Assembly: GCA_003247575.1 (NCBI GenBank)
Contig: QJZC01000058.1
Location: 101,021-165,020 of the forward strand
Length of the DNA: 64,000 nt
DNA from: Pseudomonadota bacterium
GTDB taxonomy: Bacteria; Myxococcota_A; UBA9160; SZUA-336
Direction of reading: 5' to 3'
Below, piece after piece: positions 7,428 through 27,222 of the stretch; position 1 is the first letter of the stretch, and every line of letters begins with the position of its first letter. Position numbers and translations under genes: made by a program. The notes below the pieces were generated by a model. That model did not search any database. It was given only the letters and a program-made list of their open reading frames with translations, and was not told the DNA's origin.

Positions 7428-8402
7428 ATGGAGCGTGACATGCGACCGAGCAGACTGATCCACACTTTGACCACCGCATGCGGAGTGCTCGCCTTCGGCG
7501 TACTTCCAGTGCCAGGGACCGCACGGGCGGAGACGAGCACCGTCAAGATCCCCAAGAGCCTCGTAGTCACCGCGGTAAACGCCGCCCTTTCTGGCTTCGA
7601 GATCAACCTCGACAACTGGGGCACCTTCCGTCCCCAGAGCAAGGGCACCTGGCACGTCGACAACTCGTACGTTCTATTTCCATCTGGGAAGAAGTACCAG
7701 ATCGAAGTCCCGAGGACTCCAGACGAGAGCGTGGGCGGACGGCGATACAATGCCTATGTCGATGACATGAAGACCCAGACGCTCGACGTCAAACTGGACG
7801 GAAACAGGGTCAGACTCCGCTCATTCTTCGAAAGCGCGGGGAACGAGATCAACATCGGCTGCATCAACAAGGCATCCGACAAGCCTTGCAAGGTTCATCC
7901 CCTCAAGCATTCGGGCGATCTCGACAATGCCTACTTCGCCGCACTCTTCGATCTGAAGTTCAATGGACCGCGAATCTCACTCGTTCCCTCGGACGTCGAG
8001 ATCGACTTCGATCTTCATCTCGATTCCAAGGTGCTCGACACTCTCAAGAACATTGCCTCTCAGTTCGTCGACATCAAGGGGATCGTGCGGCGCAACGCCC
8101 GGAAGGCATTCGTAACCGAGCTCACGAAGCCAGACTTGGAGCAGGAACTTTCCAAGGACCTAAACTCCGCCTTTCGGAAGGAGGTCAGGCAGCTTCTGGC
8201 AGGAAGGACTGGCGGAATGACCGCGCAGATGTTCATCAATCGGAACGTGTCGATCAAGAGCATCACCAGTCAGGGATCCAATTTCGTCATCTCGATCGAA
8301 CATCCCAAGCTGCGGAATGCCGTCGGACCAACGCCCTCGGGCCTAGGCGGGCTGCAAACTTCACCCAAACCCGACGCGAGCGGGGGCATCCAGCGAAGGT
8401 AG
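7428..8402 (+). CDS. Secreted hypothetical protein (no recognisable domain)
   Basis: 324-aa ORF with a Sec-type signal peptide (...LAFGVLPVPGTARA/ETS). The coding region is visibly less GC-rich than its neighbours and Lys/Asn/Asp-rich. No motif recognised. Confidence 0.7.
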   Translation: MERDMRPSRLIHTLTTACGVLAFGVLPVPGTARAETSTVKIPKSLVVTAVNAALSGFEINLDNWGTFRPQSKGTWHVDNSYVLFPSGKKYQIEVPRTPDESVGGRRYNAYVDDMKTQTLDVKLDGNRVRLRSFFESAGNEINIGCINKASDKPCKVHPLKHSGDLDNAYFAALFDLKFNGPRISLVPSDVEIDFDLHLDSKVLDTLKNIASQFVDIKGIVRRNARKAFVTELTKPDLEQELSKDLNSAFRKEVRQLLAGRTGGMTAQMFINRNVSIKSITSQGSNFVISIEHPKLRNAVGPTPSGLGGLQTSPKPDASGGIQRR

Positions 8403-8561: not shown

Positions 8562-10049
8562 CTAGCGCTGGTACGGAACGTCTACCGCGATCTTGATCGG
8601 CATGCCGCCCTGGATGCGATCGCTGGCGAGCAAGCCGTTCGCTACTGCGACTTCGTCTGGAGTCCACGCGCTACCTGCGCGCGAGCAGAGCGCAGCGAGT
8701 GATTCGCCTGAACGCGCCGACACGACTCGCAAGCGGCGATCGCGAATGCTCGACAGCTCATCGGCGCCGAGCACGTGGAAGCTTCGAATCGCGGACTGAA
8801 GCTCGCGGCGACGGCGATCATAGGTCGAGCTCGAGCTGAGGGAGCTGATCTGATAGATGCCATTTGGGTGCTCGACGAACACCCACTCGCCGACGACGGG
8901 ACCCTGCTGCGACTGAACCTCTGCCAGCAGCCGGTAGGCATCGAGCGACCCCAGCCGAACTCGCTCGGCAATCTGGGGCGAGAAGCGGGCATTGTCGAGA
9001 AACGCCTGAGCATAGGCTGCAGGATCTCCACGGGAGCCGACCGCTTCGAGTGTGATCAACGCATCTTGCTCGGTTGACTGCGCGCCGACGAAGCTGCGCT
9101 GATTCGTCGTCTGCCAACCGCGCGGAAAGGTCATCCCGAACTGCAGGCCACCGTGCAGGAACGCGCTCTCGACGAACACTCCCTCCGCTGGATCCGGGCC
9201 GATGCGCAGACCGTCGAAACTACTCACAAATGCGTCGCGTGTCGGCAGGAAGGGCGAGACTGAGGGCGCCTGCTGGAGTGTGCGTGCACGCTCACTGGTC
9301 GTGCGCACGCGCTCGTCCGTCACGGGATGCGAATCGAGAAAGGTCGGACGCCGCTTCGTCCCGAGGCGCAGGGTCGTGTCGCGCCCGAGGGTGCGTAGGA
9401 ACTCGGAGATTCCACCGGGCTCATAACCCGCCGCTGCCGCCATCCGTTGGCCTACGTCGTCAGACTGTCGCTCCTGATCCCGACTGTAGGATGCGATGAA
9501 GCCGGCACCCGCCACCTGCCCGAGTTGGGCCGCCGCCTGTCCCATCTCAGCTCCGCCGAGCGCCGCTCCCGCGAGTACACCGAGCATGGTCAGCACCCCA
9601 ACTCCCGTCGCGCGCGTCTGCCGCTGTGCCGCGTGGCGCGCGGCAACGTGGCCGATCTCGTGCCCGATGACGCCTGCCAGCTCGGCTTCGGAGTTCGTCA
9701 GCGCCAACAACCCGCGCGACACGTAGATGTAGCCACCGGGAAGTGCAAAGGCGTTCGGCTCCTCCATGTCGGCGACATAGAAGCGATAGCGCACGTCCTT
9801 GCGCGGGGAGAACGCGGCGACTCGCTCGCCTACACGCGACACGTATTCCGTGAGCTTGGCATCTCGAACGAGACCGATCTGCTGCTCGACCTTCGAGGCT
9901 TCCTCGCGTCCGATCGCTGCCTCCTGGGCCGGTGACATCAACGAGATCTCGGAACGCCCAGTGACCGGATTGGTGACACACGCGCACAGCAAAGCCAGCA
10001 GCGCACAGCTGGTATTCCGTCTCCACTGCTTCACGACGTATTTGCTCAT
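8562..10049 (-). CDS. M48-family zinc metalloprotease lipoprotein with a C-terminal LysM-like domain
   Basis: GVIGHEIGHVAARH (HExxH). Lipoprotein-type signal ...LLALLCAC. C-terminal SGESLAALCSRAG...VAVANGL...GGMPIKIA resembles LysM. Confidence 0.85.
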   Translation of the reverse strand: MSKYVVKQWRRNTSCALLALLCACVTNPVTGRSEISLMSPAQEAAIGREEASKVEQQIGLVRDAKLTEYVSRVGERVAAFSPRKDVRYRFYVADMEEPNAFALPGGYIYVSRGLLALTNSEAELAGVIGHEIGHVAARHAAQRQTRATGVGVLTMLGVLAGAALGGAEMGQAAAQLGQVAGAGFIASYSRDQERQSDDVGQRMAAAAGYEPGGISEFLRTLGRDTTLRLGTKRRPTFLDSHPVTDERVRTTSERARTLQQAPSVSPFLPTRDAFVSSFDGLRIGPDPAEGVFVESAFLHGGLQFGMTFPRGWQTTNQRSFVGAQSTEQDALITLEAVGSRGDPAAYAQAFLDNARFSPQIAERVRLGSLDAYRLLAEVQSQQGPVVGEWVFVEHPNGIYQISSLSSSSTYDRRRRELQSAIRSFHVLGADELSSIRDRRLRVVSARSGESLAALCSRAGSAWTPDEVAVANGLLASDRIQGGMPIKIAVDVPYQR

Positions 10050-13413: not shown

Positions 13414-14259
13414 TCAGAATCCCTTGCTGCGCACCGACTCCACACGCGAGTCGCTCGCAGCTGCCGGGCTGGGCCCGAAGAGCGCGGCGCGGGCGTCGGG
13501 GTCCGCATAGAGGACGGCCTGCGTGTACGCGGCCACGAGGGCTGCGTAGAGGCCTCCATTCCCGGTCGGAGAGCCGACGCCCGTATGCGTGGCTCCCTTC
13601 ACCGAGAGCTGCGTCACCGGCACGTTCGCCTGATTGAAGAGACCGGATCCGTTGGCGCGCGAGCGACTGGCCCCACAAGGTGCGAGCCGATCATCCGAGC
13701 CACACAGCACCAGTGCAGGCCCCACCATGTCGCGACCATCGGACCGAGCCGTGAAGCGATTGTCCGGCTGCACCGCGATCGTGCAGACCACGCGTTCGTT
13801 GATCCGCGAAGCATTCACCGCTCCAGAGCCGCCCTGGGAGTGACCAGCGGCGCAGAAGCGATCCTGCACGTTGAACCCGCCGCTCGCGAGCTGATCGATG
13901 CAGTCGGAGAGGTCCGTTCCGTCGCCCGCCTGGGGCGAGTTCGCAGCCGTGACCTGTACGCCGAAGGAAGCGATACGAGTGAGGAGACCGGCGTACGTAC
14001 TCGGCGAGGCTCCGGTCCCGTTCGCCCAGCCCAGGCCTGGCTTGGGATCTCCAGCAGTCGAGCTCAGGAAGAGGGTGCAGCGGCCCGAGCGCAGGATCCG
14101 CACCGGTTGGGGCCCGAGCTGCTCGAACTTCGTGATCCCCACCGGCCGGCTCGCGCCACGCCCCAGGAACAGACCGTCCTCATCGCAGGCGGTCAGCAAG
14201 GCCGCACTCGCTGCTGCCAAGGCGCTTGCGACTGCACGACGCCGAATCAGACCGCTCAT
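13414..14259 (-). CDS. Lipoprotein alpha/beta hydrolase (lipase/cutinase/dienelactone-hydrolase-like)
   Basis: Track ORF 13414-14361. ATG at 14259 gives MSGLIRRRAV...ALLTAC (lipobox). Nucleophile elbow AAGHSQGGSG. A later GSDD and an ATHTG-containing segment are consistent with the Asp/His of a triad. It starts about 50 nt after the PKS stop. Confidence 0.75.
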   Translation of the reverse strand: MSGLIRRRAVASALAAASAALLTACDEDGLFLGRGASRPVGITKFEQLGPQPVRILRSGRCTLFLSSTAGDPKPGLGWANGTGASPSTYAGLLTRIASFGVQVTAANSPQAGDGTDLSDCIDQLASGGFNVQDRFCAAGHSQGGSGAVNASRINERVVCTIAVQPDNRFTARSDGRDMVGPALVLCGSDDRLAPCGASRSRANGSGLFNQANVPVTQLSVKGATHTGVGSPTGNGGLYAALVAAYTQAVLYADPDARAALFGPSPAAASDSRVESVRSKGF

Positions 14260-14312: not shown

Positions 14313-17300
14313 CTAGTGCAGATCCGCCCGCTGGGACGGGCGCGTGACCGGTACGGTCCACTCAGCCGGAGCCGAGCGCATCAGGATCACCTCCACGTGA
14401 GCGCGCTCGCCGAATCGAAGCTCGTCGAGCAGGCACTGGACGCCGTCTTCGGGGTCGATCAGGCCGATCCCGCGGCGCGCATATTCACGTTCGAGCTCCG
14501 GAGAGACCATGCCGCCTCCGGCCCAGGGTCCCCAGGCCATCGTCACGACGCGCGCCCCCACTCGTTCCGCAAGTTGGCGCGAGTAGAGCGACAGAGCTTC
14601 GTTCGCGGCGGCATAATCGACCTGCCCACGGTTCCCGAACGTGCCTGCGACGCTGCCGAAGCTGACGAAGAACGCGAGGTCCGGGCGAAGCTCCGTGGCG
14701 AGGGTGCGGAACGCGCTCACCTTGGTTTCGAAGACACGCCGGAACGACTCCACGGTCTTGTCACGAATGAGCTTGTCCTCGAGCACGCCGGCCGCGTGAA
14801 CGACGCCATCGATGCGTCCGCGCTGCGTGTAGACCGCTCGAAGGACCGCCGCCAACGCATGTGGATCGCGCACGTCCACGCGGTGGTACTCGACACTCGC
14901 GGCGAGCTCCTCGAGAGCCGCGAGATTCGCCCGGATCTCGCGCGCGGCCAGCACCCTCGCCACTTCGGCCTCGATCTCTGCGGGCTTCCGAAGCCCGGCC
15001 GCTTCGATGATGGCGCGGCGCAGCTCGGGGGCGCCGGTCGCATGCGCGTAGTTCTCGGGCTCGGGCTCGCTCGGAAGCGCCGAACGACCGCAGAGCACGA
15101 CGTGGGCTCCGCTCCGCTCCGCGAGCGCGAGTGCAGCCCGGGCGCCGATCCCACGTGCTCCGCCGGTCACAAGAATCACGGCATCCGAGCCGAGCTGGAG
15201 CTGGTCGGAACGGGTCACATCGAGAGGCTCTTCCCGCAATAGCAGGGTCCGCCGCACGCCACCGGCACAGCCGACGTCCACACGATGATCCCCGTGCGAG
15301 AGCTCCGCGAGCAGTGCTTTCGCAATCGAATTCGGTGCATCCTCGGGATCCAGGTCGACAGCGCTCACGTGCGTGTCGGGGAACTCGCGGGCCAAGGTCC
15401 GGACGAGCCCGCGCACGCCGGCCGCCGCCTCGACCTCGCTCGCACGTAGCCCGTGCAGCAGCCCGAAACCACCTCCGAGACCCGTCGCTACGACCAGCTC
15501 GGTCGCGTAGGTCAGGGCACCACGCTTCAGATCCACGAAGATTCGATCCACCGGATAGCGCGGGCTCGCGCTCAACGCCCCGAGGTGTATCCAGGCTTCC
15601 CCTTCGGAGGCGGGATCGTCGGCTCCACACTCCGACACTCGCCCTCCACTCTGCTCGATCTGGAGCTCGAGCGCCTTCCGAAGCTCCTCCGCTCCACCGA
15701 GGATCCGGATGCTGCGCCCAGCCAGCGCCCGAGAGCCATCGGCACGGGATCCACGCGCAGCGATCTCTCCCGCCAGAGCCAGCTCGTAGCGAAAGCGGAG
15801 CGTACTTCCAGGCACCACGCGACCCGAGTCGATCTCCACCGGCTCCGGGGACGGACTTCGTGTGTCCAACACTGAGTTCGGCGAATCTTCGACCCCAGCC
15901 TGATCGGACTCGCGCGGTTCCTCCCCGTGCGCGTCGATCCAAGAGACCACCGCGCGCAACGTCTTGAGTCGAGCCAGCTCTTCGACGACGGCCTCGTCCA
16001 GCTCGCCATCTGCACCTCCCGGAAGCGCGACCCGTTCGGCAAGCTCTGCCAGGATCTCCATGCGCTTGATCGAATCGATGCTCAGGTCCGCTTCGAGATC
16101 CAGGTCGGGCTCGAGCATCTCGGCCGGGTATCCAGTCCGCTCGCTCACGATCTCGAGCACGGCTCGCATCAGCGCATCGCCGCTCAGGGTCGGATTCGCG
16201 GGCGCAGCGAGCTCATCGGGCGACGGCAGTGCTGAAGCAGCCGCTTCGGATGACGACGCGAAGGCGTGCGCGCCTGGAGTGGCGATCGGGCTCCCGCTCG
16301 CGGCGACTGCGGCGCGCTCCCGGGGTGCGGCAACCTCGGAGACCACCCGGACCTCGATCGGCTCTCCCAGATACCCCAGCATGACCTCACGCTGAGCAGA
16401 GATCAACTCGCGCATACCACGCAGGTACGTCTGTACGGCGACCTCACGATCGTCGCTTCCCGACTGCGACCCAGTGCGGGTGAGGACCACCGGAACGAGA
16501 GCGTTCGCAGGCCGCAGAGCCCCTTCGACCACCTCGCCGGAAGCGTCGCGCACAGTAAATCCGTTCAGCCGGTAGTGAGGCCGCGTCGCCGCGATGAGCG
16601 CCGAGTCGAGCTGGCACGCGCTGCGCCCTTCGAAGAGCGCCTGCGTGCGAATCGGTACGTCGAGCACCGCGAGTCGAGCAACGGCCCGCAAGACGGACTC
16701 GAGCGCGGGCTCACCGGGGACGTCGCAGCACACCGTGACGTGCGGTCGCTCTCCCAGAACCTTCTTCACCAAGCCCGTGAGCACCCGCCCGGGGCCTGCC
16801 TCGACGAAGATCCTGACCCCGTCCGCGTACATGTTCTCGATCTCTTCGCGAAACCGGACTGGACGCGCGACCTGCTGAGCCAGCAGCTCGGCCAGCGCAT
16901 CTGGATCGCGCGGATACTCTCGCGCGTTGCTGTTCGACCAAACCGGAAACTCGGGCGCCTGGACGCGAGTCTCGGCCAGACGTTTGCCCAGGCGCTCGGC
17001 TGCACCCGCCACGATCGGACTGTGGAATGCGCACGCGACCGGCAGCCGCCGTGCCGCGAATCCGGCGAGCTCCAGGAGCTCGAGCGCGCGGTCGATCGCT
17101 TCCGTGGTGCCCGAGATCACGATCTGGCGAGGGGCATTGTCGTTGGCGAGCACGACGTCGGAGACTCCCTCGAGCGCTAGCTCCACCTCGCCCGCGGATG
17201 CCTGCACAGCTACCATCGCGCCGGGATCGGCTCCCGCCGCCTCCAGGATCGCCAGAGCACGCTCGGAGCTCAGGGTGACGAGATCGGCTGGGGAGAAAGC

Positions 17301-20300
17301 TCCGGCAGCGCACAAGGCCACCAGCTCGCCATAGCTGTGCCCGGCGGCTACATCGGGCCGGATGCCGAACTCGCCGAGCAGAGCGTTGATCGCGAGCCCC
17401 ATGATACCGAGCGCCGGCTGCGCCACGCGCGTGTCGGTGACCGCCTGCTGCTGCGCTCGCTGCTCCTCGGGCGCGAACGCGGATGCGGGAAAGACGAGGT
17501 CTGTATACTCGGGCGCCAGCTCGAGGAAGCCTTGCAATTCGGGGAAGGCCACGAAGAGATCGGCGAGCATGCCCACACGCTGGCTGCCCTGCCCCGGAAA
17601 CAGGAAGCCGATCTTGCCTCGCCCGCTTTCCGAGCCAGCCTGCGGGCTGGCGATCGATGCCGCCGCGGCAGGATCGATCGCGTCCTCGCGGACGAATACG
17701 TTCGGCGCGCTACGGAACGCGGCCATCGGCTCCAGCTGATCGCGTAGCTCGTCCAGGCTCGAGGCGAGGGCGGCGATCTGAACCGGCGCCGCGGATCGTG
17801 TCGCGCAGGTGTAGGCGATGTCGCGTAGTCGCCACGGCCTCCCGAGCTGATCGTTTCGATCGAGTAGGCTGCGGAGCGCTGCCACCGAAGCCCGTGCAGC
17901 CTCGCGATCCTCTCCACACAGCAGCACGATCTCCACAGGCCAGTGCTTCAGGCCGCGCGCGGGCGCGTCCGCACCAGCATATGCGGAGAGCACCGAATGA
18001 AAGTTGCTGCCGCCGAAACCGAACGCACTCACCGCGGCATGCCGCCGTTCCGCGATCCACGGACGCGGCGAATGCGCGAAGTGGAACGGGCTCGTGCGTG
18101 GCTCGTAGTATGGATTCGGATGAGAGAGGTTCGCTGTCGGCGTACGCACGCGCGCGTAGAGTGAAAGCGATGCCTTGATGAGACCTGCGAGTCCCGCGGT
18201 GCACTTGGTGTGGCCGATCTGCGACTTGACCGATCCGAGCGTGCAGCTCGCGGCCTCGGAGCCCGCGTCCAGATAGAGCTCGGTGAGCGCAGCCAACTCC
18301 GTCCGGTCCCCAACCACGGTTCCAGTGCCATGGGCCTCCACCAGCCCCACTTCGCTGGGTGAAATACCCGCCTGCTCGTAGGCTCGAGCGAGCGCGAGCC
18401 GCTGCCCCTCCGGCCGCGGCGCAGTAAGTCCCAGGCTACGACCATCGCTCGAGGCACCCGAGCCACGCAGGACGGCATAGATGCGATCACCATCTCGCTC
18501 CGCATCCTCGAGTCGCTTGAGCACGATACAGGCGACCCCTTCTCCCAACGCAATCCCATCCGCGTCGCGGTCGAAAGTGCGACAGCGACCGCGACGCGAG
18601 AGTGCGTGCACACTGGAGAAGAGCAGGTAGTCTGCGATTCCATTGTGGAGATCCGCCGCTCCGCAGAGCACCATGTCGCAGGCTCCGCTGCGCAGCTCCT
18701 TGCACGACTGATCGACCGCCGCCATCGAGGTCGCACACGCAGCATCGACGGTGAAATTTGCGCCGCCTAGATCCAGCCGATTCGCTATGCGGCCAGCGAT
18801 CACGTTCGTCAAGACACCAGGAAACGAATCCTCCGTCAGGCGCGGAAGCTGAGCATCGAGATCGTCCGGCATTTCGCCACAGAACTGCGTAAACAGGGAG
18901 CGCAGTCCATAGGCGCCGCTCAGATCGGTCCCCGACTCCGCTCCGAAGATGACCGCGGTGCGCGATCGATCGAACTCGCGCTTTGCATATCCTGCGTCCG
19001 AGAGTGCGCGTCGCGCCATCTCCAGGCTGAGCAGCTGCACGGGGTCGATCGAGGCCAAGGAGCGTGGTGGAATTCCATAGTCCAGTGCGTCGAAAGGAAT
19101 CTCGGGCAGGAACCCACCCCACTTCGAGAGCGACTTCTCGCCGGCTCGCTTGCCCGTCGCCTCGGGATCATAGTAGGCGTCGATCGACCAACGCTCGGGT
19201 GGCACCTCGGAGATGGCGTCGTGCCCGTATACGATATTGGACCAGTACGTGTCGACGTCTTCTGCCTGCGGGAAGCATCCCGCCAATCCGACGATTGCAA
19301 TATCGAGTGGGCGTGCGGTCTCGGGAGACTCGAACACAGGCGTCTCGGACGCGAGAAATCGACTCCCGTCGCGGCTCACCCTAGCGTGTAGGTCTGCGAT
19401 GGCGACGACCTCATCATGCAAGGTCGCAATCTGGCCGATCATGAACATGCCATCGCTCAGCTGCTGCTCGGCGCTCACCTCGACGAGCGCTCCGCCATCG
19501 CGGCGCACTCCCTTGGTGGCAATGCGCAGCCGCCCGAGATTCAGCTCCTCGAGCGCAGCCCAGACCTCGTGTACGCTCGCCCCCTTGGCTGCGAGCTCCC
19601 GCTTCTGAGCATAGAACTGCTCGATATATGGGCTGTCGAGCACGCGGATCGCATGTCCCGGAGACGTCTCCAGCAAGACCGTACGCTCGGCCGCACAGAC
19701 CTGCTCCTGAAAGAGAGACTGCACGGCTCCCGAGAGCACGGCCTCGCGCGTCAAGATGTACGCCGACCCCATCAAAACACCGACCTTGGCACCACGCTCT
19801 GCAATCGCACCCGCAAGCGCGGCAACCATTGCCGCAGACCTTGCATCATGGATTCCGCCCGCGAACAGAACACACACGTCGGACAGGTCTCCGTACCGCA
19901 AGAGCTCCTGCGTCTGTGCCTCCCACAAGGCGAAGCTCGAACGCGGTCCAACGTGCCCACCACACTCGCGCCCCTCGAAGACGAAGCGACGTGCGCCGTC
20001 TTTGTAGAAGCTAGCCAGAAGTCCCGACGACGGTACGTGCAGGTAGGTAGGGATCCCGTCCTTCTCGAGCGCGCGCGCCTGCGATGGCCGTCCGCCCGCG
20101 ATCAGCGCGAACGGCGGACGCACACGGCGCACTTCGTCCAGCTGCGCTTCGCGGACCTCGGCAGGTACGAATCCGAGGATCCCGACGCCCCACGGGTTGT
20201 CGCCGAGCTGCGCGACCGTCTCGTCGAGCAACTGGCGTACATCCGAACCGGACATCAGGGCGAGCGCCAAGAATGGGAGGCCACCCGCTTCTGCGACCGC

Positions 20301-21293
20301 GGCGGCGAACTCCGCCTTGTCGCTCACTCGCGTCATCGGCCCCTGAGCGATCGGGTACTGGGCACCGTGCTCGCGAGCGAGCGGTGAGCCGGGACCGATG
20401 GGATCGAGGATGCGCGCCGAGTCGATGTTCAACCTTATCTGTCGCTGGATCGCGACGACGACTCCACCGGCGGTCTTGAAACGCTCCGCGAGAGGGCGCG
20501 CGAACGCACCGTCCTGGCCAACTGGAATCCAGCGTTCGCGCAGGTCACTGCCGCCGAGGCGCTCCGCCGCCTCAGCTTCCGAGGCCTCACGCACGCGGGC
20601 AATCGGGAGATCCGGACGCGTGTATACGCGATGATTCCCGAGCAGGGTGGTCTCGCTGCCATCCATGGATCGAATCGCAGCGCGCACCGGCGCAGGCAGA
20701 GCGTCCTCCGACTCCTCCGATTCGCGCACACATGCGAGCTGTGCGTCGATCACGACACCTGCTGCACCACCGGCCACCGCGGCGGCCGCAGTGTGCAAGC
20801 CGATTCCCCCCTGCGCAAAGACGGGGAGCTGCGTCATCGCGAGCAGCTGCTGAATCAACACGTAGCAGGTAGACTCACCGACACGTCCACCGCTCTCGGC
20901 CCCCTTCGCAACGAGAGCTGTAGCTCCGAGAGAGATCGCCTCGCGCGCTTCTTCGCGCGAGGTCACCTCGACCCAGAGCTCGGTATCGGGATTGGATTCG
21001 AGTAGAACGCTCACTGCACCGCGTGGGACACGCGAGCTCAGTGGAGCAAGCACGACACGCACTCGCTCGGGCAATACGATTCGCGAGCACATCGACGCGT
21101 CGGAGATCCTGACTCCAAACTCGCCCGCGGTGCGTGCCTCGATTCGGTCGAGGCAACTCTCCGCGAGTCGTAGATCGCGGCCGAGATCCAGCACGCCCAA
21201 GGCTCCAGCGCGAACGAGAGCGACGACGAGATCCGCGTTCGGATGCTCGAACGGCGTGACTCCAACGACCCAGTTGCGCTCTCTAACGCTCAT
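14313..21293 (-). CDS. Type I PKS, PUFA/heterocyst-glycolipid-synthase-like: NMO/PfaD-like ER x2 - KS - AT - ACP - KR (2326 aa)
   Basis: Track ORF 14313-21551. ATG at 21293 is preceded by GGAGGTGGA. Motifs: FEGRECGGHVG (about 19945-19975); KS VDAACATS (Cys codon 18735-18737), EAHGTGT, GHTKCTAG; AT GHSYGE (Ser codon 17334-17336), AFHSP; ACP DLSIDSIK (Ser codon 16071-16073); KR TGGARGIGA (about 15141-15170), YAAAN. No DH or TE motifs were seen. Confidence 0.9.
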   Translation of the reverse strand: MSVRERNWVVGVTPFEHPNADLVVALVRAGALGVLDLGRDLRLAESCLDRIEARTAGEFGVRISDASMCSRIVLPERVRVVLAPLSSRVPRGAVSVLLESNPDTELWVEVTSREEAREAISLGATALVAKGAESGGRVGESTCYVLIQQLLAMTQLPVFAQGGIGLHTAAAAVAGGAAGVVIDAQLACVRESEESEDALPAPVRAAIRSMDGSETTLLGNHRVYTRPDLPIARVREASEAEAAERLGGSDLRERWIPVGQDGAFARPLAERFKTAGGVVVAIQRQIRLNIDSARILDPIGPGSPLAREHGAQYPIAQGPMTRVSDKAEFAAAVAEAGGLPFLALALMSGSDVRQLLDETVAQLGDNPWGVGILGFVPAEVREAQLDEVRRVRPPFALIAGGRPSQARALEKDGIPTYLHVPSSGLLASFYKDGARRFVFEGRECGGHVGPRSSFALWEAQTQELLRYGDLSDVCVLFAGGIHDARSAAMVAALAGAIAERGAKVGVLMGSAYILTREAVLSGAVQSLFQEQVCAAERTVLLETSPGHAIRVLDSPYIEQFYAQKRELAAKGASVHEVWAALEELNLGRLRIATKGVRRDGGALVEVSAEQQLSDGMFMIGQIATLHDEVVAIADLHARVSRDGSRFLASETPVFESPETARPLDIAIVGLAGCFPQAEDVDTYWSNIVYGHDAISEVPPERWSIDAYYDPEATGKRAGEKSLSKWGGFLPEIPFDALDYGIPPRSLASIDPVQLLSLEMARRALSDAGYAKREFDRSRTAVIFGAESGTDLSGAYGLRSLFTQFCGEMPDDLDAQLPRLTEDSFPGVLTNVIAGRIANRLDLGGANFTVDAACATSMAAVDQSCKELRSGACDMVLCGAADLHNGIADYLLFSSVHALSRRGRCRTFDRDADGIALGEGVACIVLKRLEDAERDGDRIYAVLRGSGASSDGRSLGLTAPRPEGQRLALARAYEQAGISPSEVGLVEAHGTGTVVGDRTELAALTELYLDAGSEAASCTLGSVKSQIGHTKCTAGLAGLIKASLSLYARVRTPTANLSHPNPYYEPRTSPFHFAHSPRPWIAERRHAAVSAFGFGGSNFHSVLSAYAGADAPARGLKHWPVEIVLLCGEDREAARASVAALRSLLDRNDQLGRPWRLRDIAYTCATRSAAPVQIAALASSLDELRDQLEPMAAFRSAPNVFVREDAIDPAAAASIASPQAGSESGRGKIGFLFPGQGSQRVGMLADLFVAFPELQGFLELAPEYTDLVFPASAFAPEEQRAQQQAVTDTRVAQPALGIMGLAINALLGEFGIRPDVAAGHSYGELVALCAAGAFSPADLVTLSSERALAILEAAGADPGAMVAVQASAGEVELALEGVSDVVLANDNAPRQIVISGTTEAIDRALELLELAGFAARRLPVACAFHSPIVAGAAERLGKRLAETRVQAPEFPVWSNSNAREYPRDPDALAELLAQQVARPVRFREEIENMYADGVRIFVEAGPGRVLTGLVKKVLGERPHVTVCCDVPGEPALESVLRAVARLAVLDVPIRTQALFEGRSACQLDSALIAATRPHYRLNGFTVRDASGEVVEGALRPANALVPVVLTRTGSQSGSDDREVAVQTYLRGMRELISAQREVMLGYLGEPIEVRVVSEVAAPRERAAVAASGSPIATPGAHAFASSSEAAASALPSPDELAAPANPTLSGDALMRAVLEIVSERTGYPAEMLEPDLDLEADLSIDSIKRMEILAELAERVALPGGADGELDEAVVEELARLKTLRAVVSWIDAHGEEPRESDQAGVEDSPNSVLDTRSPSPEPVEIDSGRVVPGSTLRFRYELALAGEIAARGSRADGSRALAGRSIRILGGAEELRKALELQIEQSGGRVSECGADDPASEGEAWIHLGALSASPRYPVDRIFVDLKRGALTYATELVVATGLGGGFGLLHGLRASEVEAAAGVRGLVRTLAREFPDTHVSAVDLDPEDAPNSIAKALLAELSHGDHRVDVGCAGGVRRTLLLREEPLDVTRSDQLQLGSDAVILVTGGARGIGARAALALAERSGAHVVLCGRSALPSEPEPENYAHATGAPELRRAIIEAAGLRKPAEIEAEVARVLAAREIRANLAALEELAASVEYHRVDVRDPHALAAVLRAVYTQRGRIDGVVHAAGVLEDKLIRDKTVESFRRVFETKVSAFRTLATELRPDLAFFVSFGSVAGTFGNRGQVDYAAANEALSLYSRQLAERVGARVVTMAWGPWAGGGMVSPELEREYARRGIGLIDPEDGVQCLLDELRFGERAHVEVILMRSAPAEWTVPVTRPSQRADLH

Positions 21294-21674
21294 TCCACCT
21301 CCGTGGCACAGCTCGAGCGAGCAGCTCACATGTCCGACGGCGCGGGACATCGTCGGGCACCCGACGCCGCACCGACCACGCGCGCCCTCGGTCGAGCCCA
21401 TCGAATCGGCGATCATCGCAGTGTGTCGAAAACATCGAACACACCCTTTGCTGCGGATGCCAGTGCTCAGCCGACCACTCTCGAATCGATCGTCCTGGCT
21501 TCCAGCTGCAACACCAGTTACTGCAAGACGAGAGAACCGCAGCTTTCGCAACTCGCCTCGTTCAGCCTACCGTCCTGGCAGATGGGGACATCATAAGGAC
21601 CGGATAAAGTTTCCCTAACTAGTGGGACCTGCGAGAGCGAAGAACCGAATAATCCTTCACCGAGCGCGAGAGAC

Positions 21675-22358
21675 TCAGGCGGCGCTGCTGACGAGCCGGC
21701 CCTTTTCAAGCTGCACCAAACGCCCGGCAGCTTCCGCGGCTCGAGGATCGTGCGTCACCATGACGAAGGTCTTTCCTGACTCCCGGTTCAGAAGTTGCAT
21801 CAGTGCCAGAATCTCGTCCGCACTATCCCCATCGAGGTCGCCCGTAGGCTCGTCAGCGAGAAACAGCAGCGGATCGGTCACCAACGCGCGCGCGATCGCA
21901 ACCCGTTGCTGCTCGCCACCGGAAAGCTCCGTCGGTCGGTGATTGAAGCGATGCCCCAAGCCCACGATCCGCAAGGCCGCACCTGCACGCTCCCGGCGCT
22001 CTCGCGAGCTGAAAGAACGCAATAGTAACGGCAGCTCGACGTTCTCGATCGCACTCAACACCGGCACGAGATTGTAGAACTGAAAGACGAAACCGATCGA
22101 TCGGTTTCGCCAGACGTCGAGCTCCGGCCCGGTCAGATCCTGGATATCGTGCCCACCGATGCGCAAGCGTCCGGATGTCGGCTGATCCAGTCCTGCAATC
22201 AGATTCAGCAGGGTGGACTTCCCCGAACCGGATGGCCCCATGAGCGCGACGAACTCGCCCGCCTCGATCGTGAGCGAAAGGTCGCGCAGCACCGGAACTT
22301 CACTCCCACCGCGCTCGTATACCTTTTCGAGACCCGAGATTTCGACGAGTGCACTCAA
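21675..22358 (-). CDS. ABC transporter ATP-binding protein (MacB/LolD-type)
   Basis: C-terminal 227 codons of track ORF 21675-22844. Walker A GPSGSGKST, signature LSGGEQQR, Walker B LFLADEPTG. Proposed TTG start at 22358 forms TTGA with the upstream gene's stop. The exact start is uncertain. Confidence 0.85.
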   Translation of the reverse strand: MSALVEISGLEKVYERGGSEVPVLRDLSLTIEAGEFVALMGPSGSGKSTLLNLIAGLDQPTSGRLRIGGHDIQDLTGPELDVWRNRSIGFVFQFYNLVPVLSAIENVELPLLLRSFSSRERRERAGAALRIVGLGHRFNHRPTELSGGEQQRVAIARALVTDPLLFLADEPTGDLDGDSADEILALMQLLNRESGKTFVMVTHDPRAAEAAGRLVQLEKGRLVSSAA

Positions 22359-23926
22359 GGGGCTACCCGTACCTGGCTCCCGGTATCGAGATTGGGCGAC
22401 GGATTCTCGATGATGTACGTGCCCTCGGGCGGGCCCTCGACGAGCGCGACGTACGAAACCTCGTCTTCGCTGGCCGAATCCGTTCCGGATCCATCCGCGT
22501 CGTCGCCAGAGTCCGTGTCTCGGACTGCGCCGCCTGACGTACCTGAAACCGAAGCCTCCGCAACGGCGACTGCGGAGAAGCTCGCTCCATCCACGAGCGG
22601 CGGCCTCTCCGCGCGATCCGAGCTCACGTCGGCACTCTGCACGCGCGCCGTCCGTACGGGAATCCTCTGCACTCGACCCTCTTCGACCTTGAAGACGACC
22701 TCGCTTCCCTCTCTCTTCACCACCGACGAGGTCGGGACTGCGCGCGCCACACGAATCTCCTGGCGCGGCGCATAGCGCAGGAAGCGCACCTTGGAGGTCA
22801 TGCCAGGAAGCAGATCGCCGTCTGGCTCGGCGATGCGCACCCACGCCTGAACCGTCCCCTTGACCCGATCGGCCTGCGAGCTCACCCGAGCCAAGCGACC
22901 GACATAGCGGCTATTTGGCAGAGCCTCGGGCAGAACGAGCGCCGACATTCCCACCTCGAGCTTCCGCAGCTCGGTCTCATTGATCTCGAGTTCGATGTTG
23001 AGCTGATCCAGGTCTGCCAGCTCGACGACCGCGGTGCCCGGCATACCATCGGGCGTGATCGCGAGATTCAAGAACTCGCCCACGTCGCTCAGCTTACGCA
23101 CGACGGTGCCATCAAAGGGCGCCCTCAGCACGCGGTCCTCGAGCGCGACCTGCGCGACCTTGATGCGAGCCTGCGCTCGATCGAAGGTCGTCTGCGCACG
23201 ATCGAGGGCCGTCTGCGGGCGCACACCGCGCCGGAACAACTGGCGTGTGAGACTCAGCTCACGCTCGGCGTCCGCCGCCTCGGCCTGAACCAGTGCGAGA
23301 TTCGCGCGCGCCTCTTCGTCCTCGAGTCGGACGAGCAGGTCACCCCGCCGGACCGGCTGGTTCTCCTCGATTGGCATCTCGATGATGCGCCCCTGCGCCT
23401 TGCTGCTCACCACGATGCTGCGCAAGGGCGTGACATAACCGACTGCCGTCAGCACCACCGGCGGCACACCCAGATCTCGGCGCGTCACCGCGGTGAGCCG
23501 AACCTCGGGAATCTCGAGACGATCCCCGCGAAGCACGTACGAGCCACCGGCGAACACTCCCGAGCCGATGAGCAACAGCCAGAGCGAGCGCCGCAGGAAC
23601 CCGCGCTTCTTTCCCTTGGGAGCGCGGCGCTCTCGGCGGCGAGAGCGCTTGCCACCGGCGGATGCAGCGACGCCGAACGGCGAAGCCGAGCCGTCGCCCC
23701 CGGGGCTGGAGGACTCCTCGCCAGCAGGGCCCACGATGCGCAACTGCTTGAGATCTTCGCGAAGCTGTCCTTCGCTGCGTGCCGGCCGGTCAGCCATGGG
23801 CGCTACCGCGTCGTAGTTCGGACCAGCAGGAACGTAGGTCGAACCGGCAGAAACCGCTCCGAGCACCGGTAGCTGGTTCACCACGAGGGACCCGCGCCCA
23901 GCTGCGCTCGCACTGGACTCGACCAC
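22355..23926 (-). CDS. HlyD/MacA-type membrane fusion (periplasmic adaptor) protein with a long acidic C-terminal tail
   Basis: N-terminal basic stretch plus a TM span (LWLLLIGSGVFAGG). Lipoyl/hairpin motifs (GRIIEMPIEENQPVRRGDLLVRLEDEEA...LRAPFDGTVV). The tail is rich in D/S/G (DTDSGDDADGSGTDSASEDE). Start is GTG 23926 or ATG 23797. Confidence 0.8.
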   Translation of the reverse strand: MVESSASAAGRGSLVVNQLPVLGAVSAGSTYVPAGPNYDAVAPMADRPARSEGQLREDLKQLRIVGPAGEESSSPGGDGSASPFGVAASAGGKRSRRRERRAPKGKKRGFLRRSLWLLLIGSGVFAGGSYVLRGDRLEIPEVRLTAVTRRDLGVPPVVLTAVGYVTPLRSIVVSSKAQGRIIEMPIEENQPVRRGDLLVRLEDEEARANLALVQAEAADAERELSLTRQLFRRGVRPQTALDRAQTTFDRAQARIKVAQVALEDRVLRAPFDGTVVRKLSDVGEFLNLAITPDGMPGTAVVELADLDQLNIELEINETELRKLEVGMSALVLPEALPNSRYVGRLARVSSQADRVKGTVQAWVRIAEPDGDLLPGMTSKVRFLRYAPRQEIRVARAVPTSSVVKREGSEVVFKVEEGRVQRIPVRTARVQSADVSSDRAERPPLVDGASFSAVAVAEASVSGTSGGAVRDTDSGDDADGSGTDSASEDEVSYVALVEGPPEGTYIIENPSPNLDTGSQVRVAP

Positions 23927-24418: not shown

Positions 24419-25192
24419 TCACCTCGAGGCGCGCTCCTCCGAGCCCTTGGCTGCGCCCTGGGCAGAGCTCGGAGTGCGTGGCATCACACTGAACTGGTCC
24501 GATTCGTCGAAGATCCTCACGGGCTCCCAATCCCGCAGCTTCGAGAGCCGCGTTGGCTTGCGTGCCAGGAAGCCTGTAGGGTCCAGCACCCAGGGGTCAC
24601 CAGGCCGTACGGCCGAGAACCAAAACGTGACCATGTGGTAGTCGAACACCTGCGCGTCCGACCCGCGGCGCGAGCGCAGAATCGCGCGATAGATCTCTCC
24701 GCGCACAAAGCCCTGCTCGCGCAGGACCGAGAACGTCAGCAGCTCCCAGCCGTCGCAGTCGTCACGCCCCCCTGCCAACAGCTCGTCGAGGATCGGCCAG
24801 TCCTCGCCCTCGACATCGCGCCGATAGCCCACTCGGCTCGCGCGCTGCACGAAGCCCAGAGTGCGGGCGACGATGCGTTCCTTCAAATCTTGACGGAACT
24901 CGACCAGTGCCGCTTGCAGCTTCGAGTCCGGCCCCTGGGGCGGACCCTCGAGCGCCAGCTGCCGCTTCGTCGCCTCCGCGAGCCGTTCCGATGCCTGCCA
25001 CAGGCGGATGCGAGCATGGAATCCCAGAACATCAGGATCGGACCCCGCGAAAAACTCCCACTCGGCCGCGGACTGCGGCACATCGGAGGGAAGCTGCACG
25101 CACGCTCCGAGTAGAGCGAACCCGACTAGGCCGTACGCGCGTCCACAACGGAGGAGATGCGACCACGAATGAAGCAAGATTCCTTCCCCCAT
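24419..25192 (-). CDS. Lipoprotein, tentatively transglutaminase-fold cysteine peptidase-like
   Basis: Lipobox FALLGAC. Ordered Cys/His/Asp candidates DDCDGWELL ... DYHMVTFWF ... VLDPTG match the transglutaminase-like C-H-D pattern. The assignment rests on pattern only. Confidence 0.45.
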   Translation of the reverse strand: MGEGILLHSWSHLLRCGRAYGLVGFALLGACVQLPSDVPQSAAEWEFFAGSDPDVLGFHARIRLWQASERLAEATKRQLALEGPPQGPDSKLQAALVEFRQDLKERIVARTLGFVQRASRVGYRRDVEGEDWPILDELLAGGRDDCDGWELLTFSVLREQGFVRGEIYRAILRSRRGSDAQVFDYHMVTFWFSAVRPGDPWVLDPTGFLARKPTRLSKLRDWEPVRIFDESDQFSVMPRTPSSAQGAAKGSEERASR

Positions 25193-25240: not shown

Positions 25241-25993
25241 ATGAGCTTCACGCATCACCCGGAAACGCGCGACCAGACCATCGGCTGTGGACGCCCCGTC
25301 GAGGCGGCGCCCTCCCGAGGTGATTCTCTCCCATTTTCATCAGAGGCGGGCCCCGGACGCGCGGCCGTGCACCGCATAGGAGCCCACGCCTCTGGCTCTT
25401 GCACGATTCGCCGAACCTGGGGCATCCACAACTGGCTGCTGGCCAGCCTGATCGCGTGGTCGCTCGTGGCCCACGCTCTACCGGTTCGCGCCGAGTCGAT
25501 CGAGGGCGTTCAGTTCTCCCCGCTGGTCGAGTCGGGGGGCGTCGAGCTCGAACTGAACTCCGTAGGCCTGCTCCGCTACATGGTCTTCATCAAGGCCTAC
25601 GTCGCCGGCCTCTACCTGGGGCCGGGCGTCGAGCCCGAACAGATTCTCCAGGACGTCCCGCGCCGCCTCGAGATCGAGTACTTCTACGCGATCGACAAGG
25701 AGGACTTCGCCTCCTCGACGATCGAGGCCATCCGTCGGAACGTCGGTAGCGAAGCCTTCGGCCAGATCGAGGACAGCGTACAGCAATTCGCACGGCTCTA
25801 TCGCTCCGTGAAGCCTGGTGATCGCTACGCGCTGACCTATCTACCCGGAACTGGCACCGAGCTCGCGCTCAACGGCGAGCCGCTCGGTGTCGTCGCCGGA
25901 GCCGAGTTCGGGAGCGCAGTCTTCGCCATCTGGTTCGGCCCGCAGGAGATCGACGAAGATCTGAAGGACAGCCTGCTCAAGAAGCGGCGCTGA
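25241..25993 (+). CDS. Chalcone-isomerase-fold (CHI-like) family protein, secreted
   Basis: GVELELNSVGLLRYMVFIKAYVAGLYLG plus the downstream EIEYFYAIDKEDF pattern is typical of CHI-like domain proteins. Signal-like WLLASLIAWSLVAHALPVRA/E. The true start may be internal (for example GTG 25367). Confidence 0.65.
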   Translation: MSFTHHPETRDQTIGCGRPVEAAPSRGDSLPFSSEAGPGRAAVHRIGAHASGSCTIRRTWGIHNWLLASLIAWSLVAHALPVRAESIEGVQFSPLVESGGVELELNSVGLLRYMVFIKAYVAGLYLGPGVEPEQILQDVPRRLEIEYFYAIDKEDFASSTIEAIRRNVGSEAFGQIEDSVQQFARLYRSVKPGDRYALTYLPGTGTELALNGEPLGVVAGAEFGSAVFAIWFGPQEIDEDLKDSLLKKRR

Positions 25994-26057: not shown

Positions 26058-26945
26058 TCACCCCTCGCGAGGGCCGACCGACGAAAGCGACTCGAGGGCC
26101 AGGTAGAGCGCGTGGGTGCCCTTGCGCCCTTTCCCCTGCGCGCGGAGCGCCACGTAGAGCTGATGCACCAGTGCGAGCCCAGGCAGCGCGAGGCCCATGC
26201 GCGCGCTCTCGGCCAAGGCGATCTCCATGTCCTTGATGAAGTGCTCTACGAAGAAGCCCGGCTCGAAATTGCCGTCGAGCACGCGCGGCGCCAGGTTCTC
26301 GAGCGTCCAGCAGCCCGCGGCTCCACCACCGATCGAAGCGAGCACCTGGCTCAGATCGAGGCCGGCTCGGCGCCCGTAGAGCAAGCTCTCGCAGACTCCG
26401 ATCATGGTGCCCGCGATCGTGATCTGATTACACATCTTTGCATGCTGCCCGGCGCCCGGACCGCCCTGAAACACGATCTGTTTGCCGAGGCATTCGAGCA
26501 GCGGCCGCACGCGCTCGAACACCTCACGCTCGCCGCCGACCATGATCGACAGCGATGCATTGCGCGCACCGACATCCCCGCCGGAAACCGGCGCATCCAA
26601 GACGTGCCCGCCACGCGGAGTCGCTGCCTGCGCGATCTCGCGCGCCAAGCTCGGGCGCGTGGTCGTCATATCGATCGCGACCGCACCGGGAGCCAGCGCG
26701 CCGAGAATCCCTGCTTCACCGAGGTAGATCGCGCGCACGTCATCGGGGAATCCGACCATCGAGAACACGACCTCGGCCTCCTGCGCCGCAGCGGCAGCCG
26801 ACGAGGCCCAGATCGCACCCTGCTCGAGCAACGGCTCCGCGCGAGCGCGCGTACGCGAGAAGACGCACAGCGAATGCCCCGCTCGCAGCAGATGCTCGCA
26901 CATGGGCAGTCCCATGACGCCGGTCCCCACCCAACCGATGCGCAT
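26058..26945 (-). CDS. NAD(P)-dependent 3-hydroxyisobutyrate/6-phosphogluconate-dehydrogenase-family oxidoreductase
   Basis: [24 protein letters not shown] (Rossmann GxGxxG) and DAPVSGG are hallmark motifs of the family. 295 aa. Confidence 0.85.
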
Positions 26946-27222
26946 ATTCCCTCCGCGTGCTGCGCTCGCTTCGAGCCGGAGCTCGAAGCCGACCTTCCCG
27001 AATCGGTGCGAGTCTCCCGCATCGGAAGAGACCCCGCTACCGTGCCCAGCGCGCGGGGGTGCTACCCTGCTGCGCGAAGGGACCTTCCACGGCCATGCTC
27101 ACCGGAGACAGCAACCGCACCGAACGAGCCGTAGCCAGCCGGCTCGAGGTGGCCTCTACCGCCTCCACGAGGCTCCCCGACCCGAGAGGCGAGGCGAACT
27201 CGTCCCCGCAGAAGCTCTCGCC

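Follow-up and report, generated by a model that had tools for sequence, protein, structure and literature searches.

Where does a synthase with enoyl reductase (ER) domains but no dehydratase (DH) obtain its enoyl substrate? The question is raised by a gene at 14313..21293 on the minus strand of a 64,000-nucleotide stretch of contig QJZC01000058.1 (assembly GCA_003247575.1), which we refer to as the window and in whose positions coordinates are given unless another locus is named. The original prediction described the product as an unusual polyketide synthase (PKS), in which two N-terminal ER domains of PfaD/nitronate monooxygenase (NMO) type are fused to ketosynthase (KS), acyltransferase (AT), acyl carrier protein (ACP), and ketoreductase (KR) domains, and proposed that either essential partners are encoded elsewhere or the duplicated NMO-like domains do chemistry other than enoyl reduction. 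We find that the synthase is another member of a widespread, uncharacterized, and already described family, most of whose members sit beside a gene that supplies the DH, that the locus in the window is an incomplete cluster, and that what is unusual about this synthase is its local orphan state.

A Widespread Family of Fused Synthases

The open reading frame (ORF) as listed spans 14313-21551 (minus strand), and translation from the ATG at 21291-21293 to the stop codon at 14313-14315 gives a complete protein of 2326 aa. A GGAGG ribosome-binding site, read from the sequence at 21298..21302, lies 5 nt upstream of that ATG, and the N-terminus (MSVRERNWVVGVTPFE) agrees with that of a 71% identical homologue (MSAKERKWVVGVTPFE in P0002), which bears out the start first proposed at 21293. 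Pfam finds in the product NMO (three stretches), KS, KAsynt_C_assoc, AT, PP-binding, and KR domains. ORF, Pfam/NCBIfam, and homologues together give the layout ER1-ER2-KS-AT-ACP-ψKR-KR, in which ψKR is the structural subdomain of the KR; all of these features lie on the minus strand. An N-terminal TIM-barrel ER joined to a PfaA-like KS-AT-ACP-KR is the "PfaDA"-type arrangement.

More than 100 full-length homologues (~2200-2800 aa, 48-71% identity) share the Pfam set, a few of them without a scored NMO or ACP match; the named sources are Nocardia, Actinomadura, Pseudonocardiales, Acidimicrobiales, Frankia, Myxococcota, Sulfidibacter, and Limnocylindria. Among species-representative genomes, N-terminal alignment confirmed the double-barrel N-terminus in at least 556 of 599 pattern-matched stretches. 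The best 80 of the confirmed loci were kept, and both barrels matched in almost all of them; they also include Chryseobacterium, Pedobacter, Aquimarina, Brocadiaceae, Planctomycetota, Gemmatimonadota, Bryobacteraceae, and one gammaproteobacterium. The double-barrel family spans Actinomycetota, Myxococcota, Bacteroidota, Planctomycetota, Acidobacteriota, and Gammaproteobacteria. The top match to the window synthase in this genome collection, among the matches listed, is 59% identical, and a metagenome scan with the full synthase returned relatives at 36-54% identity only, the known 71% and 67% homologues not being recovered.

The arrangement has also been described before. To the extent of the accessible text of these sources, clusters with a "fused pfaDA" and a "pfaBC with PPTase" (phosphopantetheinyl transferase) are presented as uncharacterized secondary lipid synthases (PMC3098273, PMC13291983). 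Shulse and Allen in 2011 distinguished Type M (Frankia, Renibacterium, S. avermitilis, and Actinosynnema) and Type N (Chitinophaga and Chryseobacterium) (PMC3098273); in 2026 the fused arrangement was noted in Aquimarina/Flavobacterium hybrids, and the Renibacterium cluster was described (PMC13291983). From the shared genera and the 2026 statement on Renibacterium, rather than from the 2011 domain orders, we infer that the window family corresponds to Types M/N. Given the homologues, the double-barrel stretches, and these descriptions, the architecture can no longer be called unusual, and at the level of the family the gene is essentially the fused pfaD-pfaA variant that the original prediction had listed among the findings against it.

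An Adjacent Partner Supplies the Dehydratase in Most Relatives

Of 103 fetched loci, our survey took in the 57 in which 4.3 kb or more of sequence follows the synthase. A gene encoding KS-AT-DH-PPTase lies directly downstream in 47 of them. Four others have a DH-PPTase gene without a KS (L018, L025, L038, L040), and four have a second KS with weak or partial DH-PPTase matches, three of these with a DH-like match right after the KR; no partner was found at two loci (L077, L080). In a Nocardia genome and on a 3.4-Mb metagenome contig, the synthase is followed by a KS-AT-(PS-DH)-PPTase protein of ~1450 aa and then by an ACP-like protein of ~100 aa, two α/β-hydrolases (one thioesterase-like), a glycosyltransferase, and a methyltransferase. 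The usual series after the partner in relatives is a small ACP and one or two α/β-hydrolases, with a glycosyltransferase where the flank reaches that far and a methyltransferase in some.

The partner KS holds the active Cys and both His and is therefore not a chain-length factor (CLF). Synthase and partner jointly carry KS, AT, ACP, KR, DH, ER, and PPTase, a complete iterative set like that of a fatty acid synthase (FAS). Because the adjacent partner supplies the DH in most relatives, the paradox of an ER without a DH, raised in the original prediction, is removed for the family. Of the two routes out of the paradox that had been offered, partners encoded elsewhere gain support from the partner genes of the 47 loci, and exotic NMO chemistry gains none, since the FabK-type and flavin mononucleotide (FMN) motifs of the second reductase are intact, as described below.

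The four loci with a DH-PPTase gene but no KS belong to three actinomycete metagenome-assembled genomes (MAGs) and one "delta proteobacterium" MAG, with ~1.2-1.3 kb from the synthase end to the DH; the partner KS is thus dispensable in part of the family. At L030, L063, and L070, and also at L059, whose flank was too short for the survey, a weak DH-like match starts right after the KR, and the DH may be fused to, or lie directly after, the pfaDA-type protein in some lineages. At L080 (Brocadia), the synthase ORF is longer, at 2777 aa. L077 and L056 are two fused synthases, ~54% identical to each other, in one MAG (Acidimicrobiales M3-S_metawrap_bin.105); L056 has the full partner set after it, and L077 is an intact orphan of 2361 aa with a methyltransferase directly next to it. 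A word-indexed search with the DH-PPTase part of the partner at L005, a locus considered below, returned 85 mostly fragmentary matches, from which the query's own full-length protein was absent.

A Degenerate and an Active-Looking Reductase of FabK Type

The original prediction was right that the N-terminus holds two NMO/TIM barrels, but their assignment to the PfaD type did not stand. ER1 (residues ~5-300, 20394..21281) is a divergent FabK/NMO-like TIM barrel plus lid and a probable pseudo-reductase, as judged from hidden Markov models (HMMs), AlphaFold (AF2), and hhalign. ER2 (residues ~305-655, 19329..20381) is a predicted FabK-type FMN/NAD(P)H enoyl-ACP reductase domain, identified by HMMs, sequence matches to FabK entries in the PDB, and Foldseek. 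Taken alone, residues 1-300 match FabK (TIGR03151) with E=3e-15 and exceed the gathering threshold of Pfam NMO (42 bits against 28), and residues 301-665 match FabK at E=8.5e-26; the ER2 score of 90.9 against an equivalog cutoff of 453 is what would be expected of a fused, divergent domain.

The AF2 model of residues 1-665 (pLDDT 88.6, pTM 0.90) has two β/α-barrel-plus-lid units in one body, with eight β/α units in ER1, and at this pTM the relative packing of the two barrels is predicted with confidence. Foldseek places FabK best against this model (TM score 0.83-0.84, target-normalized; E ~3e-17), ahead of FabX (0.56-0.59), trans-AT PKS reductases (~0.5), and PfaD structures (4z9r, 6lkc, and 4yx6; 0.39-0.48), with nitronate monooxygenases also among the matches. 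No PfaD-family NCBIfam model appeared at E<=0.1, only FabK and a spurious cytochrome match, the presence of a PfaD model in that library being unconfirmed. Because of the Foldseek scores and the HMM results, the reductase domains are, as judged by sequence and model, FabK-type and not PfaD-type.

This reductase class is defined by a Met in motif I, by a catalytic His within the motif III sequence xE(A/C)GGH, and by two FMN-phosphate motifs, GG and G-T (PMC13311796). ER2 resembles FabK in fold and retains all of these features: QGPM (M320), ECGGH (H447, codon 19953-19955), AGGI (G479, G480), and MG(S/T) (M508, G509) are invariant in 30 homologues. We therefore regard ER2 as an active-looking enoyl reductase, predicted from sequence and model to be of FabK type. 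ER1 has no motif-I Met (GVTPFE instead), no catalytic His, and no G-T pair, which is replaced by D183-A; the catalytic-His position is occupied by Arg137 in the window (codon 20883-20885) and by R, L, G, or H across the family. ER1 keeps only E-x-G-G and Q-G-G-I of the FabK motifs, and E133, Q148, G162, G163, D183, D211, E214, and R222 are invariant in the 30 homologues. When the model and the motifs are considered together, the FMN and catalytic sites that both barrels had been expected to be checked for are kept in ER2 and lost in ER1, which looks like a probable pseudo-reductase across the family.

The hhalign comparison of ER1 with ER2 (94% probability, E=1e-7, 26% identity over 189 columns) marks the two as true homologues by sequence. 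In a sensitive search of 1.84 billion representative proteins, ER1 matches were confined to the N-termini of such synthases (153 clusters at E<1e-30), many of the short ER1-bearing cluster proteins being probably contig-end fragments. ER domains reportedly work in pairs as dimers, and the structure of one ER heterodimer has been solved (PMC13311796); because of this class behavior and this precedent, ER1 may be the structural pseudo-dimer partner of ER2. The precedent for two non-identical ERs pairing in a synthase of the polyunsaturated fatty acid (PUFA) type is thraustochytrid ERb/ERc, both of which are PfaD-type and FMN-binding and reside on different subunits (PMC13311796), whereas the window pair is FabK-type and lies on one chain, and one of its members looks inactive. 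FabK itself is a free-standing homodimer of ~320 aa; here, in contrast, two FabK-like units, the first motif-degenerate, are fused to a megasynthase. In the accessible text of the 2011 and 2026 papers on pfaDA clusters a single "ER" is described, as opposed to the tandem pseudo-ER and ER of the window family, and such a FabK-type tandem seems undescribed there.

Condensing Domains, Ketoreductase, and Linkers

Pfam, NCBIfam, and the structure models agree with the domain order and motifs first proposed for the rest of the protein, and the codons that had been assigned to the KS Cys (residue 853, 18735-18737), the AT Ser (residue 1320, 17334-17336), and the ACP Ser (residue 1741, 16071-16073) are exact. 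The KS (residues 664-1056, 18126..19304; PF00109 and PF02801) completes its triad with His988 (18330-18332) and His1028 (18210-18212), and a KS-AT linker domain (residues 1067-1149, 17847..18095; KAsynt_C_assoc) joins it to the AT (residues 1230-1521, 16731..17606; PF00698, and FabD TIGR00128 at E=9e-58). Beside the GHSYG Ser1320, the AT carries Arg1345 and His1424 in AFHS, a motif of malonyl-type ATs, and so has a malonyl-type fingerprint. There is one ACP (residues ~1706-1789, 15927..16178; PP-binding match at 1711-1755) with a DSIK Ser; a single PP-binding domain in Pfam and a single helical bundle in AF2 uphold the claim of one ACP. The catalytic KR (residues 2038-2310, 14364..15182, with the Pfam KR match at 2038-2258; assigned by Pfam, motifs, and Foldseek) has TGGARGIG, Lys2191, Ser2214, Tyr2227 (codon 14613-14615), Asn2231, and "LED". 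An "LED" (LDD-type) fingerprint denotes a B-type KR, whose product is the normal DH substrate.

The condensing module therefore has the KS Cys-His-His, the AT GHSxG with Arg and His, the ACP DSx Ser, and the KR Lys-Ser-Tyr-Asn with the NADPH Gly motif. Of these residues, C853, H988, and H1028 of the KS, S1320, R1345, and H1424 of the AT, S1741 of the ACP, and K2191, S2214, and Y2227 of the KR are invariant in the 30 homologues, and N2231 is conserved in at least 90% of them. PfaA (TIGR02813) is the top NCBIfam match both of the KS-AT stretch and of the full synthase, and the likeness to canonical PfaA and PfaD of Shewanella and Moritella extends to the ACP placed before the KR and to an FMN TIM-barrel enoyl reductase. 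The window protein is nonetheless not a canonical PfaA: it scores 923.7 bits against a cutoff of 1010.1, has one ACP instead of 4-6, and lacks the C-terminal DH. Unlike canonical PfaD, its ER is fused, duplicated, and FabK-like.

A DH or thioesterase (TE) might have been hidden in the linkers. An AF2 model covering residues 1520-2326 (29-sequence alignment, pLDDT 77.7) gives in order a low-confidence linker, a conserved helix, a disordered Ala/Pro-rich stretch, the ACP, a short disordered segment, and two Rossmann-type subdomains; the low-confidence parts are segments within 1571-1613, together with 1641-1698 and 1793-1815. The post-AT helix (residues 1615-1641, 16371..16451) has the consensus RDAAVLEYLR..RELVAAQREVMLGYLG. 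In Foldseek the C-terminus aligns over ~500 columns to KR didomains (4hxy PlmKR1, TM 0.80; 5ktk bacillaene KR, 0.81; 2fr0 EryKR1, 0.78), and because these are complete didomains the stretch 1780-2030 is the structural subdomain of the KR (pseudo-KR; residues ~1819-2029, 15207..15839, an α/β fold in AF2). With only ACP and KR found by Pfam and NCBIfam in residues 1520-2326 and a standard ψKR+KR didomain in the model, we rejected a cryptic DH or TE; neither a hot-dog DH nor an α/β-hydrolase TE is present in the suspected linker regions, in line with the motif reading of the original prediction.

The Locus in the Window Lacks the Partner Genes

Searches of the 64 kb by tblastn with 35 partner and neighbor proteins from L001, L002, L003, and L005 (E<=1) found no partner-gene remnants. 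With three KS-AT-DH-PPTase proteins as queries, only the synthase's own KS-AT matched, with no adjacent pfaBC gene, and there was no tblastn match in the window to a free-standing ACP-like protein or a thioesterase-like α/β-hydrolase partner. Pfam scans of ~40 larger window ORFs contained no DH, FabA/FabZ, PPTase, second KS/CLF, or PKS-type TE, the few ORFs at ~60.1-64 kb being covered by tblastn only. The two methods together confirm the earlier statement that the 64 kb contain no DH, second KS/CLF, or PPTase, and no TE of PKS type. Compared with pfaDA clusters elsewhere, the window is thus without adjacent genes for the KS-AT-DH-PPTase, ACP, hydrolase, glycosyltransferase, and methyltransferase partners.

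The flanks place the window in a series with two related loci. Upstream, a HlyD-family adaptor (22355-23926, minus strand; Pfam, 46% identity to L005 by tblastn) and an ABC ATPase (21681-22349, minus strand; Pfam, 76% identity to L005 by tblastn) are the conserved left flank of the cluster. At L005, HlyD-ABC-FtsX-FtsX precede the synthase; the two FtsX permease genes have no tblastn match in the window, where 387 nt separate the end of the ABC ATPase from the start of the synthase (interval 21294-21680, compared with 4070-6402 of L005), and their absence suggests a deletion on the upstream side too. Downstream, synteny with L001 extends over a ligand-gated channel (64%), a GT4 glycosyltransferase (92%), an M48 peptidase (76%), a 357-aa protein (52%), and an MFS transporter (72%). 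The interval between synthase and channel holds in the window a predicted lipoprotein α/β-hydrolase and a DUF4328 protein, neither of which has a homologue in the 103 fetched loci.

The cluster at L005, whose synthase is 60% identical to that of the window, is complete but rearranged, with the partner 8.5 kb away on the opposite strand. At L001, the locus of the closest homologue (synthase 71% identical, intact, 2337 aa), the rest of the cluster is reduced to a glycosyltransferase that is still intact and to fragments of the hydrolase (89 aa) and the methyltransferase (99 aa), and the window retains no partner or accessory gene; the three loci represent different degrees of cluster loss. The two L001 fragments, a C-terminal α/β-hydrolase end at 8101-8370 and a methyltransferase part at 9583-9882 of that locus, flank the glycosyltransferase.

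The hydrolase beside the window synthase is a 281-aa ORF (13414-14259, minus strand) that lies 54 nt past the synthase stop and has an LLTAC lipobox, a GHSQGG nucleophile elbow, and an α/β-hydrolase core. We considered it as the missing thioesterase and rejected it because it carries a lipoprotein signal, because PETase-like PF12740 is the sole family that it matches, and weakly at that (E=0.0017), and because no homologue of it stands beside any relative.

Possible Functions of the Orphan Synthase

We think it probable, if by no means certain, that the window gene encodes a functional "PfaDA"-type subunit of a two-protein, iterative, PUFA-synthase-like (secondary lipid) synthase whose partners lie elsewhere in the genome. 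A PPTase would activate the ACP, and the KS, AT, and KR of the window protein would build a 3R-hydroxyacyl-ACP. The DH of the partner would then dehydrate this intermediate, and ER2, with FMN and NAD(P)H, would reduce the resulting enoyl group; repeated cycles would give a long, mostly saturated chain. A hydrolase would free the chain, which in complete clusters may be glycosylated or methylated and is probably exported. ER1 would be non-catalytic and would pair with ER2 in one polypeptide, replacing the homodimer partner needed by FabK/PfaD-type reductases. The locus would have been rearranged, with every partner gene gone from the neighborhood of the synthase.

Because the synthase is still under purifying selection, the partner functions are most likely not absent but encoded elsewhere in the genome, either in a split cluster or in another, complete one. 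Against its L001 homologue, dN/dS is 0.18 overall at dS ~1.26. By region it is lowest in the KS (0.073), ER2 (0.086), and the ACP (0.094), and is 0.18 in both AT and KR, 0.23 in ER1, and 0.31 in ψKR. The corresponding values for neighboring genes are 0.05 (GT4), 0.17 (M48), 0.21 (MFS), and 0.36 (357-aa protein), and the overall value of the synthase therefore falls within the neighboring housekeeping range. Of 362 near-invariant columns, the window protein differs from the family consensus at 21, a number near the median for the family, and the replacements are conservative throughout; by these measures it does not look like a decaying gene. Both split and paralogous arrangements have precedents, in the displaced and inverted partner of L005 and in the Acidimicrobiales MAG with orphan L077 beside complete L056.

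Several observations weigh against this proposal. The 14 kb downstream and the 42 kb upstream of the synthase contain no partner, and the orphan state is atypical, being shared by only two of the 57 surveyed relatives. The eroded remnants at L001 fit a cluster in decay, and at dS ~1.3 the dN/dS averages over a long history, so that we cannot exclude a recent loss of function. The pseudo-dimer role of ER1 is extrapolated from other reductases of its class. Finally, a literature search for the domain strings and the product yielded nothing past the 2011 and 2026 descriptions and no family member with a characterized product.

The alternative that survives best is a relic: the gene would be all that is left intact of a secondary-lipid cluster in decay, making no product and not yet having gained disabling mutations. 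The absence of all accessory genes from the window, the FtsX permease genes missing from the flanking exporter relative to L005, the truncated hydrolase and methyltransferase fragments at L001, and the rarity of the orphan state are what one would see in that case. We nevertheless judge it unlikely: the 2326-codon ORF is intact with a good ribosome-binding site, every catalytic residue is kept, near-invariant sites show no excess change, and the low dN/dS, 0.07-0.09 in KS, ER2, and ACP, was obtained against a relative that is also without an adjacent partner.

A synthase that is self-sufficient at this locus is less likely still. It would draw on FabZ/FabA and on a housekeeping or Sfp-type PPTase in trans, or would skip dehydration to give 3-hydroxy or polyhydroxy chains. 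In its favor, two lineages keep the protein under purifying selection although no partner is adjacent, and the partner KS is dispensable at the four loci with a DH-PPTase alone. There is also a parallel in heterocyst glycolipid (hgl) synthesis, where the Type F cluster has no DH domains (PMC3098273) and such DH-less synthases are reported to skip dehydration. On the other side, ER2 is the second most conserved domain by dN/dS, which implies an enoyl substrate, and the adjacent DH-PPTase in 51 of 57 relatives, with weaker DH-like matches in four more, points to a dedicated DH. Pfam scans of the window found no FabZ/FabA or PPTase gene, and cross-talk between a type II DH and a type I ACP is only hypothetical for this family.

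That the duplicated NMO-like domains instead carry out nitronate oxidation or a FabX-like dehydrogenation/isomerization that sets double bonds is very improbable. In its favor are the functional diversity of the NMO superfamily, the FabX and nitronate monooxygenase entries among the Foldseek matches, and the conserved polar residues of ER1 without an assigned role. Against it, ER2 is best matched by FabK enoyl reductases in both sequence and structure, the KR and DH of the family's two proteins supply a normal enoyl substrate, and a FabX-like enzyme was rejected for its low TM score and because a FabX-type [4Fe-4S] cluster needs four Cys where Cys444 is the sole invariant Cys in ER2.

We also tentatively entertain a bolder reading, on balance doubtful: ER1 would be a family-wide pseudo-enzyme in an intramolecular FabK-like pseudo-dimer with the active ER2, and the orphan, maintained by selection in the absence of its usual neighbor, would use non-dedicated or distant partners to make a lipid unlike that of the complete clusters. 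To our knowledge, such an ER1-ER2 pseudo-dimer design has not been described for any FAS, PKS, or PUFA synthase.

Relation to Known Systems

The closest known systems are the fused pfaDA synthases of Types M/N, which have the same ER-KS-AT-ACP-KR subunit and, as far as the accessible descriptions go, no known product throughout. Homologues from Frankia, Chryseobacterium, Pedobacter, Aquimarina, Nocardia, Actinomadura, and Myxococcota align with the window protein over the full double-barrel N-terminus. The hgl Type F system shares with the window family a PfaA-like synthase and, in the complete clusters, a glycosyltransferase. A HlyD/ABC/FtsX exporter stands beside the L005 synthase, and the window has HlyD/ABC upstream and a second exporter at 26.9-30.6 kb; these exporter genes may be comparable to DevBCA. 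The hgl gene set differs in having neither a fused ER nor a PPTase-bearing partner. A glycolipid product by analogy with hgl is only a suggestion for the family, and one not directly applicable to the orphan copy.

The family is very widespread and was flagged in 2011, yet it is still without a known product. Its complete gene set can now be given as ER-ER-KS-AT-ACP-KR followed by KS-AT-DH-PPTase, ACP, hydrolases, and, where seen, a glycosyltransferase, and it will be useful for characterization that the reductase is FabK-like rather than PfaD-like and is predicted to be a tandem of one degenerate and one active barrel. For annotation, the lesson is to read a lone "PKS" that has an ER but lacks a DH as a subunit detached from its cluster rather than as a novel kind of assembly line. 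A copy that is orphaned yet under selection also provides a natural experiment on which of the partner functions are really dedicated.

Other Genes of the Window

The second exporter lies on the plus strand in a devBCA-like order, with a HlyD adaptor (26902-28065), an FtsX permease (28076-29233), and an ABC ATPase-GAF protein (29245-30621); the last, of 458 aa, is an unusual fusion of an ABC ATPase with a C-terminal GAF domain in one ORF. Between the two exporter operons are a chalcone-isomerase-like protein (25241-25993, plus strand; PF16036, E=1e-34) and a 257-aa ORF (24419-25192, minus strand) that has no family match, both without a homologue in the fetched loci. Farther along, the window (62-70% GC) encodes a large NAD-specific glutamate dehydrogenase of 1595 aa (33463-38250, minus strand) with Bac_GDH catalytic, ACT, and helical-motif domains, and a 700-aa fusion of a class II aldolase with a short-chain dehydrogenase (42273-44375, plus strand). 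The window's GroEL most resembles metagenomic sequences (up to 91%), the top named matches being Myxococcota or "Deltaproteobacteria" MAGs at 75-78%, and the host is probably an uncultured Gram-negative relative of Myxococcota. TonB, DUF4124, and type IV pilin-like proteins are also encoded in the window.

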